This document shows positions 1 through 20,778 of a DNA stretch of 32,000 bases, in pieces (position 1 is the stretch's first letter; each line of letters opens with the position of its first letter). The notes under the pieces were generated by a model. The model was not told the DNA's origin, did no database searches, and was given only the letters and a program-made list of their open reading frames with translations. The translations under genes were made by a program, and so were the position numbers. The stretch lies in NCBI GenBank assembly GCA_000175855.1, contig ACYB01000022.1:30001-62000 (forward strand), in the 5' to 3' direction. Source of the DNA: Raphidiopsis brookii D9. GTDB lineage: Bacteria; Cyanobacteriota; Cyanobacteriia; Cyanobacteriales; Nostocaceae.

Positions 1-2149
1 GGAGAAATGAATCTCTATCCCAAAATAAATTATATGGAGAATAGCGATTTTCAAACTGTGCTAAATTTTGAGTAATTGTATGCTTAAGAAAGTCTCGGCG
101 CAAGAATATAATGACCCCTATATTTGCTTTTCTAATTTCTGAAATCTTTGTGGGTACATCATCAATTAAAGCCTTTAAAGCTATCCTTTGTTGAGTATGG
201 GTATAAATCTCTGGAAAAATATTTTCCAAACCATCAAAAAGAAATACAATATTTAATTTTCTTTCTTTTAATTCCCGGTCTATTGCCATGAGAGTACTAT
301 GACCAATATCCAAATTAATATCGATTGACTTGGCAATAATCTTACTAATCCAAAATTCTGTCCATTTTAATTCATTCCAGTTTTCTTCTAGGGACTTTTT
401 TAGGGAACTTTTAATTTCATCAGTGTAGTTTGAGTGGCTAAATTCCAACGTACTTTTCAAAGCTGATCGAACTTCGTTCCTGGCTTTGTCAATAATATTT
501 TGAGCATCCCGTTCAACATACTGACTTTGAAGCAAAGGAAATATATAGGTTCTGTTTTTCGGTTCTTCATGATTTTGACTACCATCTACACGACGTAAAA
601 AACTTTCCCAATTCCTAAGACGTGATAGATGTATATAATTAAAAGTCTTTCCCGATCCTTTAGCACCAATACATAAAACATTGGGTAATTTATCCGAGAA
701 GTCACTTGCTAAATTTCGTAAGGGTTCTATAATCAGTAAATTTTCTCCTTTGCCAGTTTCTGCATATCGATATTTTTCACACAAGTCTCTGATTTTTTTC
801 AAATCATCTAACTTCTTATTGAACAAATCTTCAGATAAAACCTCTTGATTATTAGCATTATCAGCAGTGATCAACTTTGTTTCTGCCCATTTTCTGGCAT
901 TCTTCATTAATGTAGTTGCTGATAATCTTGATCGAGCTTCTTCCCAACTATTAACATAGAGTAGTTCTTCTGCAAAGAAAGCCTCAATAATTTCCAACCT
1001 TTTGCTATAAACATCTTCTGTATCTTCCGGTTGAATATAATTTTGGTAAAATTCATCCACGGCATTTTTATAACGGGGTGAATCTATGACTTCCTGCTTC
1101 AACATATTAATCAATAACCATGGATCATAATATTTTTCATGTTGTATATCCGATTGTGATGGTGCTACTTTACCGATTTGTTGTAAAACTAGATTAGTAC
1201 CACGAATAGACTGTTCACTAATGCTGGTAACAATAAACCTTTCAACTCTAGGATCAAAGATTATTGGGCTAGATATCTCACTTAGTCCAGCTCTTAAATC
1301 AATAAATACATAATTTATGTCAAGCTCTTGACCTAAAAGATTGATAGCATTACTGTACCCCCAAGCTCCATGAGCACCCCTAACTAAATGTTCTGGTAAG
1401 ATTGGTTTATCTAACAACTGTTGGTCATTTAAACAAGCAGGCAAAAAGTACACTTTTGATCGGTCTTCATTTATATGACTAGTTAAATTTTTTTTCAATT
1501 CTTTAGCAAATAATGATAGTGTCTGTTCTACGGGTAGGCGAGAATAATGATAAACTTCTAAAAAGTCCAGGAAACAAACTGCTGGATTCTTGACACCATT
1601 CCAATAGGTCAAACCTGGTGCTTCTAAATCAGCATCAATAACCAAGATATTTATTGGTTGATTTAATTGCTTAGATCTCTCCAGTAATGCCAAAAGATAG
1701 GCTACCAGATTTAAGGTTCTACCTACACCACCTTTAAAAGAATAGAAAGCTAATAATTCAGTTTTATTAATTTTTGTTTGAGTATATGGGTCTGGTAGAT
1801 TAATTGCACTCTTTTGAGAAGTCTCTATTTCTGGTAAGTAGGCAATTTCTTCCCAAAAGGGACGGGGCTCAATAGGATTAATCTCTATTTCCTCCGGTCC
1901 AGTAAATTCTACCGGTAACTTATCATCTCCCATATCAAGTTGAATTACCGATTCTTCTTCTAAATACCAATCACCAAACCACTGTTTGACAATACTTTTA
2001 GCTGATTCTTTATCACCAGTAATTCCTATTTCTACAGCGTCAGAAAAGCAGTTAACTCTGACTATACCTTTATTTTTCAGTTCTCTGTCACGTCTAGTTT
2101 CTTGAAGAATTCTTCTTCTCACATCTAACCATGTTAAAAATCTATTCAT
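1..2149 (-). CDS. Large two-P-loop NTPase, C-terminus cut by the window edge. A ParA/MinD-like domain with variant Walker A KGGVGRT is fused to a second P-loop domain (GAKGSGKT ... FLFDGLE).
   Basis: It is absent from the ORF track because there is no stop inside the window. Hand translation of the minus strand from ATG at 2149..2147 gives 716 sense codons down to nt 2 (MNRFLTWLDVRRRILQETRRDRELKNKG...). FYSFKGGVGRT lies at nt 1735..1715. LVIDADLEAPG and VFIDLRAGLSE match ParA-type A-prime and B motifs. The second Walker A, CIGAKGSGKTF, lies at nt 667..644, and a Walker-B-like NIVFLFDGLEN has its Asp at 235..233. Confidence 0.8.
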   Translation of the reverse strand, partial: MNRFLTWLDVRRRILQETRRDRELKNKGIVRVNCFSDAVEIGITGDKESAKSIVKQWFGDWYLEEESVIQLDMGDDKLPVEFTGPEEIEINPIEPRPFWEEIAYLPEIETSQKSAINLPDPYTQTKINKTELLAFYSFKGGVGRTLNLVAYLLALLERSKQLNQPINILVIDADLEAPGLTYWNGVKNPAVCFLDFLEVYHYSRLPVEQTLSLFAKELKKNLTSHINEDRSKVYFLPACLNDQQLLDKPILPEHLVRGAHGAWGYSNAINLLGQELDINYVFIDLRAGLSEISSPIIFDPRVERFIVTSISEQSIRGTNLVLQQIGKVAPSQSDIQHEKYYDPWLLINMLKQEVIDSPRYKNAVDEFYQNYIQPEDTEDVYSKRLEIIEAFFAEELLYVNSWEEARSRLSATTLMKNARKWAETKLITADNANNQEVLSEDLFNKKLDDLKKIRDLCEKYRYAETGKGENLLIIEPLRNLASDFSDKLPNVLCIGAKGSGKTFNYIHLSRLRNWESFLRRVDGSQNHEEPKNRTYIFPLLQSQYVERDAQNIIDKARNEVRSALKSTLEFSHSNYTDEIKSSLKKSLEENWNELKWTEFWISKIIAKSIDINLDIGHSTLMAIDRELKERKLNIVFLFDGLENIFPEIYTHTQQRIALKALIDDVPTKISEIRKANIGVIIFLRRDFLKHTITQNLAQFENRYSPYNLFWDRDSFL

Positions 2150-2165
2150 AATTTTACCAATGTTT

Positions 2166-2639
2166 TTAATCTTTTAACTCAGTTTGGATCCATTTTGATA
2201 TTTTCAACAACCTATTTTCAATATCTCCGTCTGTAGCATCTTGAATTCTATCATCTTCTACTATTTTAATTACTTCTGCGCCATATCGCCACACTTGGTT
2301 GATTTGCCCACTATTTATTTTTCGGTCAATTGGATTCCCCTTGGTATCTACTATTTCGCTAATTGATATTTTTGGTAACTTTAATAGTTGACCAGCATGG
2401 ACTCTATCTAATAACTTATTGATGTCATGCTGGCATTCTGTGATATCTTGACACAGATCAGTACGATTTTGCCTTTGCCTTCTCATTAGGACTGCTTTAA
2501 GTCCACATTCAACGGCATAAAACAAGTTTAACCGGTGAGCATTATTATTATTTTTGCATATAGAAGTAGCCGTTTTATAAGCGAAAAAGTGATTACGCCA
2601 AGCCTTTTGCATCTCACGCTGTGTGAAAATTATTGTCAT
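2166..2639 (-). CDS. Hypothetical 157-aa protein with a HEPN-like helical N-terminal half. It is the first gene of a two-gene module with the ATPase.
   Basis: The ORF is in the track, starts with ATG, and sits 16 nt upstream of the ATPase start on the same strand. The pattern LFYAVECGLKAVLMRR ... ECQHDINKLLDRV resembles the HEPN helix-2 / helix-4 (xHDLxxLL) signature. There is no Arg 4-6 residues before the His, so the canonical Rx4-6H motif is not intact. I did not recognise any other family. Confidence 0.6.
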   Translation of the reverse strand: MTIIFTQREMQKAWRNHFFAYKTATSICKNNNNAHRLNLFYAVECGLKAVLMRRQRQNRTDLCQDITECQHDINKLLDRVHAGQLLKLPKISISEIVDTKGNPIDRKINSGQINQVWRYGAEVIKIVEDDRIQDATDGDIENRLLKISKWIQTELKD

Positions 2640-2663
2640 TGAGAATTAGGTTAATTAAAACTC

Positions 2664-2697
2664 CAGTTTTGATTCTACCATGGTAGGATCAAAACTG
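2664..2697 (-). terminator. 34-nt near-perfect palindrome (16 of 17 positions pair), probably the ftsH intrinsic terminator. It may double as an operator or promoter element for the downstream module.
   Basis: CAGTTTTGATtCTACCATGGTAGgATCAAAACTG. On the minus-strand RNA the stem is followed by GAGUUUUAAUU. It lies 30 nt after the ftsH stop and 24 nt before the ATG at 2639. Confidence 0.5.
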
Positions 2698-2727
2698 TAC
2701 CTAGTGAGAGTTTGGGTCCGAGCTAAT

Positions 2728-5777: not shown

Positions 5778-6872
5778 TTGGGGAGTGTATCCGTGAAACT
5801 TGGTCAATGGATTGGTTTAATTGCTTTAGTTGTGTCTCTGTACATATTATGGCAACTACGTGAAGTATTACTATTGATATTTGCTGCTGTGGTTTTAGCT
5901 ACCACCTTAAATAGACTGGCTAGAACTTGTCAAAATCTGGGAATTAAACGTGGACTAGCTGTCTTCTTATCCGTAATGTTTTTTTTGGTGGGTATAGTTG
6001 CTTTTTTTTGGGTCATTGTGCCACCCTTTGTTCACCAATTCCAAGAACTGACTTTACGAGTACCACAGGGTTTTGAACGGGTTAATACCTGGATAGATGA
6101 GCAAAGAAGTCATATTCCCCAGGAATTGGAACCTGTTATTCCCGATCTTAATCGTTTGATCGCAGAAGCTCAACCCTTAATTAATCGAGTTTTGGGCAAT
6201 TCTTTTGCTTTTGTTTCCGGTTCTTTAGTACTGGTTCTCAATATTTTATTGGTTTTAGTTTTAACGGCAATGTTCCTAACTAATCCCCCAGCTTATCAAA
6301 AGTTATTTGTTAGACTTTTTCCTTCCTTTTATCGACGACGGGTAGAGGGAATTTTGAATCAGTGTGAGGATTCGCTAGAAAGATGGCTGACAGGAGCTTT
6401 TATTGCTGTTTGTGTAGTGGGATTGATGAGTCTAATTGGTCTGTCAATTTTAGGTGTCAAAGCAGCTTTGGCTTTGGGTGTTTTGGCAGGATTGATGAAT
6501 TTAATTCCCAATTTGGGACCCACTATGAGTGTGGTTCCAGCTATGGCGATCGCTCTTTTAGATTCTCCTTGGAAACCAATTTTTGTCCTAATTCTTTACT
6601 TTTTTATCCAACAGCTTGAAAGTAATTTTATCACTCCTATGGTGATGGCACACCAGGTTTCTCTATTACCAGCTGTTACCCTAATTTCTCAGTTGTTTTT
6701 TGTCACCTTTTTTGGATTTCTAGGCTTATTTCTAGCATTACCCTTGACTGTGGTGGCAAAAATTTGGATTCAGGAAGTATTGATTAAGGACGTATTAGAT
6801 TGCTGGGAACACCATGGTCATGATCAAGTTGACTTAGTAATTATTACTGATGATGATTCTCAAGGGGAGTAG
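5778..6872 (+). CDS. AI-2E family transporter (PerM / UPF0118-like permease)
   Basis: 364-aa polytopic ORF with the family's typical architecture and C-terminal NLIPNLGP ... FFIQQLESNFITP pattern. The track start is TTG at 5778, and GTG at 5793 is an alternative. Confidence 0.85.
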   Translation: MGSVSVKLGQWIGLIALVVSLYILWQLREVLLLIFAAVVLATTLNRLARTCQNLGIKRGLAVFLSVMFFLVGIVAFFWVIVPPFVHQFQELTLRVPQGFERVNTWIDEQRSHIPQELEPVIPDLNRLIAEAQPLINRVLGNSFAFVSGSLVLVLNILLVLVLTAMFLTNPPAYQKLFVRLFPSFYRRRVEGILNQCEDSLERWLTGAFIAVCVVGLMSLIGLSILGVKAALALGVLAGLMNLIPNLGPTMSVVPAMAIALLDSPWKPIFVLILYFFIQQLESNFITPMVMAHQVSLLPAVTLISQLFFVTFFGFLGLFLALPLTVVAKIWIQEVLIKDVLDCWEHHGHDQVDLVIITDDDSQGE

Positions 6873-11950: not shown

Positions 11951-12034
11951 CGGAGAGGGGGGATTCGAACCCCCGTTGAGTTGCCCCAAAACACATTTCG
12001 AGTGTGCCGCATTCAACCACTCTGCCACCTCTCC
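11951..12034 (-). tRNA. tRNA-Ser (anticodon CGA), class II with a long variable arm
   Basis: Hand fold: acceptor GGAGAGG, D-arm GCA/TGC, anticodon stem GCACA/TGTGT with loop CTCGAAA, variable arm TTGGG-GCAA-CTCAA, and T-arm GGGGG-TTCGAAT-CCCCC. The C-run shared by the T-stem and acceptor has 6 C where a canonical fold needs 7. No CCA is encoded. Confidence 0.85.
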
Positions 12035-15742: not shown

Positions 15743-17230
<1,488 letters not shown>

Positions 17231-17349
17231 TAGGGAGACCTACCCATTGAAGAATCGAAAGCGGAAAGCGAATAGAGAATCAAATGGTCTACTCTAGGTC
17301 GGTGACGTGAGATTGTGAAGTCTTTCAAACTAATATTTGGTTCGCGAGA

Positions 17350-17423
<74 letters not shown>

Positions 17424-17429
17424 CCTGAT

Positions 17430-17502
17430 GGGGGTTTAGCTCAGTTGGTAGAGCGCCTGCTTTGCAAGCAGGATGTCAGCGGTTCGAGTCCGCTAACCTC
17501 CA
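17430..17502 (+). tRNA. tRNA-Ala (anticodon UGC) in the ITS
   Basis: GGGGGTTTAGCTCAGTTGGTAGAGCGCCTGCTTTGCAAGCAGGATGTCAGCGGTTCGAGTCCGCTAACCTCCA. The G3:U70 identity pair is present. Confidence 0.95.
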
Positions 17503-17558
17503 CATTGGGTATCTTCAGCAACTAGGAAAGACCTAGACTGCTGGTGATAAACCAGCCA

Positions 17559-17571
17559 GAACCTTGAAAAC
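17559..17571 (+). promoter_or_regulatory. boxA-like motif in the ITS, preceded by a boxB-like hairpin (about 17515..17543)
   Basis: GAACCTTGAAAAC is identical to the leader copy. Upstream, CAGCAACTAGG-aaaga-CCTAGACTGCTG forms an imperfect hairpin. Confidence 0.5.
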
Positions 17572-17602
17572 TGCATATAGAAAGATAAGAGTAAGAGTAA
17601 GT

Positions 17603-20422
<2,820 letters not shown>

Positions 20423-20499
20423 AGAAATTGAATTTACTCTTATCGAAATATATGCAGTCTTCAGGGTTTTGAAGTGGAAACTTTGAAACCGAGAGGTTT

Positions 20500-20617
20500 T
20501 CCTGGTGTCTATGGTGCGGTGGAACCACACTGATACCTTCCCGAACTCAGAGGTGAAACGCTGTTGCGGCGACGATAGTATGGGGGTTGCCCTATGTCAA
20601 AATAGCTCGATGCCAGG
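20500..20617 (+). rRNA. rrf: 5S ribosomal RNA
   Basis: TCCTGGTGTCTATGGTGCGGTGGAACCACACTGATACCTTCCCGAACTCAGAGGTGAAACG...GCTCGATGCCAGG. The terminal helix CCTGG/CCAGG is present. Confidence 0.9.
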
Positions 20618-20778
20618 TTTATTATTACACAATCGCTCACTCCATTTATTATGGGGTGGGCGGTTTGGTTTTGCATCCCCACGAAATAGGGTGGATTGGC
20701 GCTAAAATTGCTATATAATTTACACAGCAGGAGGATGAAAAACTAGGATCCGGAATTTTCTAAGGATAAGCAACAACA

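Follow-up and report, generated by a model that had tools for sequence, protein, structure and literature searches.

What might a very large protein with two P-loops and a small, HEPN-like companion do together beside ftsH in a cyanobacterial genome? The question is raised by the left end of a 32,000-nucleotide (nt) stretch of Raphidiopsis brookii D9 (contig ACYB01000022.1, positions 30,001 to 62,000; hereafter the window), where two co-directional minus-strand genes lie 16 nt apart. The small gene (2166..2639) encodes a 157-amino-acid (aa) HEPN-like putative effector. The spacer at 2150..2165 separates its stop codon from the ATG (position 2149) of the large gene, whose first 716 codons occupy 1..2149, the reading frame staying open to base 2. 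An earlier note made from the letters of the window (the original prediction) had described this layout, and it was recovered as described. The contig reached through the exact small protein is 6.9 kb long and breaks off at the same point. Taking the full length from relatives at 93-96% identity, the large protein has about 924 residues (the homologue P0002 from R. curvata NIES-932 has 924 and is 93% identical), so that the last ~208 codons, covering a helical lid and a winged helix, fall outside the window.

We judge both open reading frames (ORFs) to be real genes rather than chance ORFs, because the large protein has 1401 scored homologues (cluster representatives, E<=0.001; top match 96% identity) and the small protein is 100% identical to CRD_01283 of R. 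brookii D9. The small protein is represented by 653 sequences at the 50% identity level.

Our reading, to which we assign a probability of roughly one half, is that the pair constitutes a conflict or defence module of the sensor-effector type, in the manner of abortive infection or other defence; the remainder is divided among three alternatives treated below and functions of other kinds. A conflict role is supported by circumstantial evidence, namely the horizontal spread of the genes, how often they decay, a toxin-antitoxin island around the pair in Microcystis and crippled copies carried by Mic1-like cyanophages; as far as profile matches can tell, the conflict logic is also backed by homology to the PADLOC candidate PDC-M28. 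The original prediction, which had proposed such logic for an uncharacterised two-gene module, is essentially supported, its HEPN part weakly so.

Architecture of the two proteins

The layout of the large protein was taken from an AlphaFold2 model of P0002 that is confident at residues 440-900 and weaker in the ParA-like part; all window coordinates given for it are on the minus strand. An N-terminal alpha/beta domain (aa 1-88, nt 1886..2149; strands at 29-86, helix at 47-64, predicted local distance difference test (pLDDT) score 60-88) leads into a disordered linker that reaches about aa 130 (pLDDT below 50 at residues 92-131). Next come a ParA/MinD-like domain (about aa 131-340, nt 1175..1759), a helical linker (about aa 343-467, nt 749..1123, from model secondary structure) and, from about aa 470, a second P-loop nucleoside triphosphatase (NTPase) core of the STAND or ORC/Cdc6 type (nt 2..748). 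The model continues with a helical domain and a C-terminal winged helix at 860-900. The protein stops about 25 residues later, and no C-terminal repeat or sensor domain was found after the winged helix.

The fusion of a ParA/MinD-like domain with a second, STAND-like P-loop, as originally proposed, is borne out by a protein family profile, by structural comparison and by the motifs of 47 diverse homologues. The first domain matches NF047398, 'KGGVGR-motif variant AAA ATPase', at 145.8 bits (cut-off 90; E 1.8e-42) over aa 131-325 and profile positions 3-189 of 190, which is the NCBI label that the original prediction had named. Foldseek pairs the same domain with MinD (1g3q) at probability 1.00 over 158 columns with 21% identity. 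The predicted motifs are all present in the predicted order: KGGVGRT (variant Walker A; aa 139-145, nt 1715-1735), IDADLEAPG (switch-I-like; aa 171-179, nt 1613-1639) and FIDLRAG (Walker B-like; aa 282-288, nt 1286-1306) in the first domain, and GAKGSGKT (Walker A; aa 495-502, nt 644-667), FLFDGLEN (Walker B; aa 636-643, nt 221-244) and IIFLRRDF (sensor-1-like; aa 680-687, nt 89-112) in the second. The start of GAKGSGKT lies 141 aa before FLFDGLEN, where the original count had been about 137.

The first domain shares with ParA, MinD and Soj a deviant Walker A carrying the signature lysine (xKGG), a DxD-type switch I and an hhhD Walker B. Additional matches are phrog_164, a 'ParA-like partition protein', at 2.7e-05; CbiA and VirC1, each in 29 of 38 members under the Pfam cut-offs; and AAA_31, likewise sub-threshold. 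A search of PDB sequences with the large-family profile returned only ParA, at E 0.5. Unlike ParA, MinD and Soj, the domain sits inside a much larger protein, has neither a ParB nor a centromere alongside, and carries an arginine at the P-loop lysine position throughout the family. The first Walker A reads KGGV[GS]R[TS] in 47 of 47 homologues, which retains the signature lysine, replaces the catalytic P-loop lysine and thus departs from the xKGGxxK[ST] pattern of ParA/MinD proteins, where both lysines are present. Lysine-to-arginine changes at this position in P-loop NTPases usually preserve nucleotide binding and cripple hydrolysis. The first domain would therefore be a latch or dimeriser, and the second the working switch.

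The second P-loop is of canonical type. Its Walker A is canonical (GxxGxGK[TS]) in 47/47 homologues, the Walker B reads DGLE[DEN] in 44/47, and an hhFhRxD motif, which resembles the sensor-1 'hhhTTR' motif of NB-ARC proteins, is present in all 47. With an hhhhD Walker B, a sensor-1 arginine and the helical domain and winged helix that follow, this half has the make-up of a STAND core. The closest structural neighbours by Foldseek probability are ORC1/Cdc6 chains (0.93-0.99; ORC1 7mca_A 0.99), Dark (8y6q_J, 0.97) and Apaf-1 (3sfz, 0.72), none with E below 1e-3. Because ORC1/Cdc6 scores equally well, these comparisons do not separate a STAND from an ORC-like assignment. No Pfam STAND model was matched at threshold, nSTAND1 and nSTAND3 each appearing in one of 38 members (E 0.12 and 0.26).

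These features invite comparison with the STAND NTPases of immunity (Avs, bNACHT and the AP-ATPases), which share the hhhhDGLE[DEN] Walker B, the hhFhRxD motif, the helical domain and the winged helix, and to which Dark and Apaf-1 add structural neighbours. The large protein differs in lacking a TPR, WD40 or LRR sensor and in having its effector encoded by a separate gene. Predicted-inactive MinD/ParA-like domains have been described in conflict systems of multicellular bacteria, one of them joined to an AP-ATPase (Kaur et al. 2020, PMC7159879). The large protein resembles that arrangement in placing a predicted-impaired domain in the same polypeptide and in being enriched in multicellular bacteria.

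The small protein is modelled by AlphaFold2 with a pLDDT of 95.3. Helices at 7-27, 33-54, 64-69 and 73-79 precede a beta-rich insert at 90-134 that contains a further helix (110-118), and the protein ends with a helix at 137-155. Seven residues (Y41, E44, G46, K48, H71, R118 and Y119) are invariant in a broad alignment that includes relatives at 23-35% identity. E44-x3-K48, which falls within helix 33-54 and corresponds to the HEPN Ex3[KR] motif, is invariant in 57 diverse members. H71 (nt 2427-2429, minus strand), the only invariant histidine of the family, lies in the insert between helices 2 and 3, and R118-Y119 (nt 2283-2288, minus strand) begins at the end of helix 110-118, where the arginine of an Rx4-6H motif would stand.

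The 'alternative' histidine of AbiV and AF0298-like HEPN proteins also sits between helices 2 and 3 (Anantharaman et al. 2013, PMC3710099). The small protein thus shares with AF0298-like HEPN-T and AbiV proteins both the Ex3[KR] of helix 2 and a conserved histidine from the helix 2-3 insert. Judged by alignment, its constellation of E-x3-K, histidine and Arg-Tyr is of the kind found in non-canonical HEPN proteins. The PDB entries 1ufb (TT1696), 4nqf and 2hsb (AF_0298) are among the few Foldseek matches of appreciable probability, none of them significant (E 0.6-1.0, target-normalised template modelling score 0.35-0.53). Differences from AF0298-like and AbiV proteins are the ~45-residue beta insert (aa 90-134), an invariant WRYG motif, and a partner that is an ATPase rather than a nucleotidyltransferase or an RNA antitoxin. 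A KNTase_C match in one member (E 0.26) is sub-threshold, and the small-family profile found only chance-level matches among PDB sequences (Sac7d, PDCD5, mS34). Some source annotations call homologues 'HEPN domain-containing protein'. Of the HEPN hallmarks, the Ex3K element is present, and Rx4-6H and a Pfam HEPN match at threshold are missing. The HEPN-like assignment of the original prediction is weakly supported, and we treat the protein as HEPN-like and non-canonical, short of a proven HEPN RNase.

A conserved operon and its relatives

Our survey, which took one genome for each GTDB species, yielded at least 537 stretches encoding a relative, and 79 loci were fetched (stretches are labelled L below). 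A profile of the small protein detects the small gene directly upstream, in the same orientation, at about 60 loci belonging to 10 or more phyla. Wherever a locus extends to the 5' end of the large gene, the linkage holds almost without exception, down to 30% identity in the large protein. Lineages with the pair include Cyanobacteria, Desulfobacterota (among them the cable bacteria Electronema and Electrothrix), Parabeggiatoa and Alteromonadaceae of the Gammaproteobacteria, as well as Bacillota, Actinomycetota, Myxococcota, Acidobacteriota, Chloroflexota, Aminicenantes and Omnitrophota. The median stop-to-start distance is -4 nt (an ATGA overlap), and the genes overlap in 43 of 60 homologous loci. 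In a metagenome-assembled genome of Thermoanaerobaculaceae the two proteins are encoded by a single continuous ORF (L076 9296-12415), a natural fusion that supports physical interaction of the products.

No conserved third gene was found among the flanks of the homologous loci. Recurrent neighbours were considered as partners and rejected: the 830-aa gene upstream of the pair in Nostocaceae is recG and reflects lineage synteny, the ~680-aa gene downstream in Oscillatoriales is uvrB, a 482-aa PF13482 gene is a neighbour in Raphidiopsis only, and a ~490-aa neighbour cluster is heterogeneous. Aggregate PADLOC matches of the neighbours to Cas3, SspA and DndA were discounted as helicase and cysteine-desulfurase cross-hits (recG, uvrB, Aminotran_5). 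The pair is a self-contained two-gene operon, as the original prediction had supposed in calling it a two-gene module.

A minority of flanking genes are of defence type (mad2/3/8, PbeA, PsyrT, AriA, Uma2, a caspase-domain protein and a UvrD/Schlafen-like helicase); HypF is also found among the heterogeneous flanks. The Microcystis pair is surrounded by two PIN genes, a Gp49/HigB-like gene and a Dam-like methylase, a toxin-antitoxin island context. Separately, a mad2-like gene of the MADS system (E 4e-17; L084 12309-13256) is the immediate downstream neighbour of the distant homologue from Nostoc KVJ20, Mad8-like ATPases lie beside four other loci (neighbour set A3), and the large protein itself gives faint mad8 matches at its second Walker A.

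The closest described relative that we found is PDC-M28, a computationally defined phage defence candidate of PADLOC with components A, B and C. In the PADLOC comparison that the original prediction had proposed, the small protein matches A (0.0036), and the window-truncated large protein matches B (1.3e-10) and C (0.0065); full-length P0002 matches B at 5.7e-11 and C at 7.4e-14. The matches are stronger for a distant fused homologue from Mastigocoleus (L081; B 2.3e-40, C 8.6e-27), where the upstream small ORF matches PDC-M28A at 9e-8 and shares the motif YAxECxLK; the small ORF of the Nostoc KVJ20 locus (L084) matches A at 4e-6. In both systems counterparts of A, B and C are encoded together, the N-terminal half of the large protein corresponding to B and the C-terminal half to C. 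These profile matches identify the family as a fused B+C relative of PDC-M28. PDC-M28 itself consists of three separate genes (B ~330-440 aa, C ~480 aa), whereas B and C are fused into a protein of ~910-950 aa at all full-length loci examined here. The similarity is partial and distant, extending around the P-loop only in B and over profile positions 298-409 only in C.

A second relative was predicted by Anantharaman et al. (2013, PMC3710099), who described a dyad of the HEPN family MAE_18760 from Microcystis with a ParA/Soj-like ATPase and postulated a toxin-antitoxin pair with the ATPase as antitoxin. Compared by published description, the dyad likewise couples a small HEPN-type gene with a ParA/Soj-like (SIMIBI) ATPase in a conflict module, and its prototype comes from Microcystis, where close homologues of the present pair occur. 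It differs in that Rx4-6H is tabulated for MAE_18760 and missing here, and in that no second, STAND/ORC-like P-loop is mentioned. The module is thus a fused, divergent variant of PDC-M28 and of the HEPN plus ParA/Soj theme, and is not categorically new. Three features stand out: an arginine that universally takes the place of the lysine in the ParA-like P-loop, next to a STAND/ORC-like switch of canonical type; the non-canonical catalytic-type residues of the small protein; and the crippled phage copies described below. A large STAND survey and the DefensePredictor paper leave a ParA-fused system unmentioned, and we found no paper naming PDC-M28 or KGGVGR.

The gene tree of the large protein places the Nostocales, including Raphidiopsis, in one coherent clade, nests Desulfobacterota inside a cyanobacterial clade, and distributes Cyanobacteria over three or more separate clades, among which Bacillota, Chloroflexota and Acidobacteriota are interspersed. 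The topology indicates vertical inheritance near the tips and horizontal transfer deeper in the tree. Rhizonema sp. PD37 holds two subfamilies, with 53% (L038) and 30% (L052) identity to the Raphidiopsis protein, the 53% copy being truncated after about aa 435 in both Rhizonema bins (L038 from PD37 and L042 from PD38).

These data bear on the idea that the pair serves a housekeeping role, the large protein acting as a positioning or scaffolding ATPase of the ParA/MinD type and the small protein as a partner or adaptor comparable to ParB, MinE or McdB. The ParA/MinD-like domain suits this idea, as do the source annotations of homologues (ParA, MinD or BcsQ), the enrichment in filamentous lineages (Nostocales, Oscillatoriales, cable bacteria and Parabeggiatoa) and the stable chromosomal position beside core genes in Nostocaceae and Raphidiopsis. 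We nevertheless consider it improbable. A P-loop arginine in every homologue compared is unfit for a positioning ATPase that must cycle, and the fusion to a STAND/ORC-like switch weighs against such a role. Conflict between gene tree and species tree, several paralogous subfamilies per lineage (two in Rhizonema PD37), frequent pseudogenes and crippled copies in phages also speak against it, and the pair is present in unicellular Microcystis and Crocosphaera too.

The resemblance of the C-terminal half to ORC1/Cdc6 could instead suggest maintenance of an integrated element, with an ORC/Cdc6-like initiator and a ParA partition ATPase serving an episome and the small protein acting as an accessory DNA-binding factor. 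In keeping with this, ORC1/Cdc6 chains are the most probable structural neighbours of that half, a winged helix lies at the C-terminus, the protein has a ParA-like domain, and the G+C content is below that of the surroundings. Carriage on mobile elements is, however, nearly lacking: among 72,556 plasmid records (PLSDB) only 3, all Ralstonia megaplasmids, carry a homologue of the large protein, and neither 50,697 phage records nor 2.9 million viral contigs contain the full gene or module. We accordingly rejected the idea that plasmids or phages carry the module as a whole. Integrase, relaxase and other mobile-element genes do not recur among the flanks, which are ordinary chromosomal ones, and we regard element maintenance as highly improbable. 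One of the megaplasmid copies, in Ralstonia pseudosolanacearum (NZ_CP069246.1; L085 8001-10727), is a full-length homologue (35% identity, 99% coverage) beneath which the PLSDB gene table has no annotated feature.

The locus in Raphidiopsis and Cylindrospermopsis

Close relatives show what lies beyond the left edge of the window. Their gene order is ftsH, small gene, large gene, and then a convergent gene (482 aa; PF13482, RNase_H_2) that shares 32 nt with the large gene's 3' end. Beyond it stand housekeeping genes: a class-V aminotransferase, YjbQ, NIF3 and alaS. This arrangement argues that no further partner gene lies past the edge, contrary to the original suggestion that more might be found to the left.

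R. brookii, R. curvata, C. curvispora and C. raciborskii all have genes of the pair at this same ftsH-adjacent locus. Because the locus is kept across these species, the pair behaves within Raphidiopsis and Cylindrospermopsis as a long-resident element and not as a recent island. The low G+C content noted originally is real: the large gene (0.335, with 0.24 at third codon positions, GC3) and the small gene (0.350) have the lowest values of all genes in the window, compared with 0.409 for ftsH and 0.37-0.46 for the others.

Between ftsH and the small gene lie 88 nt (2640..2727, minus strand). They contain a perfect 12-bp palindrome, CTACCATGGTAG (2675-2686, minus strand), that overlaps a -10-like TAGAAT (2672-2677) about 33 nt upstream of the small-gene ATG. 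The element is kept in three Raphidiopsis alleles, one of which has about 800 bp inserted upstream of it. A consensus promoter scan reported neither it nor any other promoter in this spacer, and a consensus terminator scan detected no terminator after ftsH in the same interval. The palindrome and TAGAAT may represent the pair's own promoter and operator.

The allele with the insertion is that of R. curvata NIES-932, in which the ~800 bp of extra DNA between ftsH and the pair include a C5-methylase fragment. In detail, the region (L004 8627-9516) holds a 74-aa ORF and a fragment coding for 90-94 aa from the C-terminus of a C5 cytosine DNA methylase (PF00145, E 6.6e-19), and the left end of the extra DNA has a second partial copy of the junction sequence ATGGTAGAAT. 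These features suggest a remnant of a restriction-modification insertion at the same spot. Elsewhere in the window, a complete rRNA operon (16S, two spacer tRNAs, 23S and 5S) occupies 15743-20618 and accounts for the block of high G+C at 16-20 kb, and a single minus-strand tRNA lies at 11951-12034, where a long ORF call on that strand has its 5' end.

Decay, phage-borne copies and proposed function

Either gene can decay beside an intact partner. Frameshifts or truncations affect the large gene in L035 (from the isolate Sphaerospermopsis kisseleviana NIES-73, whose genome is near-complete), L038/L042, L033, L050, L069 and L040, and only a remnant survives in L080. Beside the broken large gene, the small gene is intact with all its invariant residues in six of these loci (L035, L038, L033, L050, L069 and L040). 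Conversely, the small gene is lost or broken beside an intact large gene in L002, L012, L078 and L066. One such allele comes from a metagenomic Raphidiopsis population (L002; JGI 3300044622, also Logan SRR27426722), where a clean 411-bp deletion at a TATG microhomology has removed codons 27 to the end of the small gene (L002 9839-9960 compared with window 2150-2561) and joined the first 26 codons in frame to the large-gene ATG, giving a 953-aa product (P0001). Several C. raciborskii genomes record a truncated small protein of 106 aa.

Decay in both directions argues against a constitutive toxin held in check by an antitoxin, and fits a system in which neither part is harmful alone. It bears directly on the classical toxin-antitoxin arrangement, in which the HEPN-like protein would be a constitutive RNase toxin and the ATPase an antitoxin acting through nucleotide-dependent conformational change or phosphorylation. 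This arrangement would agree with the HEPN plus ParA/Soj prediction (PMC3710099), with the tight translational coupling of the genes and with the toxin-antitoxin-rich neighbourhood in Microcystis, and the natural allele that has lost the small (toxin) gene and kept the large one represents the tolerated direction of loss. Yet a free constitutive toxin should not survive in the six loci where an intact small gene stands beside a broken large one. A five-part antitoxin of 924 aa is, moreover, far more elaborate than neutralisation needs, and the Rx4-6H listed for MAE_18760 in the 2013 table is missing from the family. We therefore regard a classical toxin-antitoxin pair as unlikely.

Partial copies in phages provide a further line of evidence. 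ORF5 of Microcystis phage Mic1 (L086 5031-5651, MN013189.1 8171-8791), annotated 'ParA family protein', is a 206-aa copy of the second P-loop core only, sharing 61% identity (E 2e-80) with aa 471-687 of the large protein from Microcystis and 37% with P0002. Its Walker A is destroyed, IGAKGAGKTF having become IGEDVAKKTF, and FLRRD has become FLHRD. Homologues with 67-69% identity occur on four IMG/VR contigs (L093-L096, ~6001-6516) with Mic1-like gene order, and in all four the Walker A is ruined and the remainder of the domain well conserved. A conserved fragment of an oligomerising host NTPase, predicted to be dead for nucleotide binding, is what one would expect a dominant-negative anti-defence protein to be. 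ORF5 has been used as a ParA, in evidence for a ParABS partition system and lysogeny (PMC7156551). On sequence comparison it is not ParA/MinD-like; what it copies, in truncated form, is the STAND/ORC-like second P-loop of the host KGGVGR protein.

How such a conflict module might work can be sketched as follows. The KGGVGR domain would act as a nucleotide-binding dimeriser or latch with poor hydrolysis, and the second, catalytically competent P-loop as the switch. A trigger such as phage infection would alter the oligomeric state of the large protein, which would then license the bound HEPN-like protein, probably a dimer, to cleave RNA and arrest the cell. Neither partner would be harmful by itself, and so either gene could decay beside an intact partner. 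Mic1-like cyanophages would counter the system with a Walker A-dead copy of the second NTPase core that poisons the assembly. We propose this specific version tentatively: a widespread anti-phage system of bloom-forming cyanobacteria and other multicellular bacteria in which a ParA-like dimeriser and a STAND/ORC-like switch possibly gate an alternative-histidine HEPN RNase, and which a Mic1-like decoy neutralises.

Several observations weigh against a conflict role or parts of it. The small protein lacks the canonical HEPN Rx4-6H motif, there being no histidine 4-6 residues after R118; a Foldseek search of PDB returned nothing below E 0.3; and Pfam HEPN (PF05168) stays sub-threshold in 2 of 54 members (best E 0.17) and 3 of 57 (best E 0.0031). 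At many loci the surroundings consist of housekeeping genes (recG, uvrB, ftsH, transporters, glycosyltransferases) and not of a defence island, and the position, downstream of recG in Nostocaceae and beside ftsH in Raphidiopsis and Cylindrospermopsis, is more stable than that of typical defence genes. The G+C deviation is modest, with GC3 overlapping the values of some neighbours in the window. Some of the frameshifts were seen in metagenome bins, where they may reflect faulty assembly, and the phage fragment could be a neutral gene capture. Finally, we found no experimental work in the literature on the KGGVGR family, PDC-M28 or MAE_18760, in line with the original description of the genes as uncharacterised.

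The carriers of the pair include the ecologically important bloom formers Raphidiopsis/Cylindrospermopsis, Dolichospermum, Microcystis and Planktothrix, as well as cable bacteria. For the phage Mic1, the assignment of ORF5 to the second P-loop of the host protein corrects the published ParA reading (PMC7156551). If the pair does function in defence, it would represent a new regulatory architecture, in which a ParA-like latch and a STAND/ORC switch are set over a separate HEPN-like effector, and Mic1 ORF5 would be a ready-made phage counter-measure to it. The crippled phage copies make the defence hypothesis directly testable in the Microcystis-Mic1 pair, where, if the more specific proposal is true, they would exemplify anti-defence by subunit mimicry.

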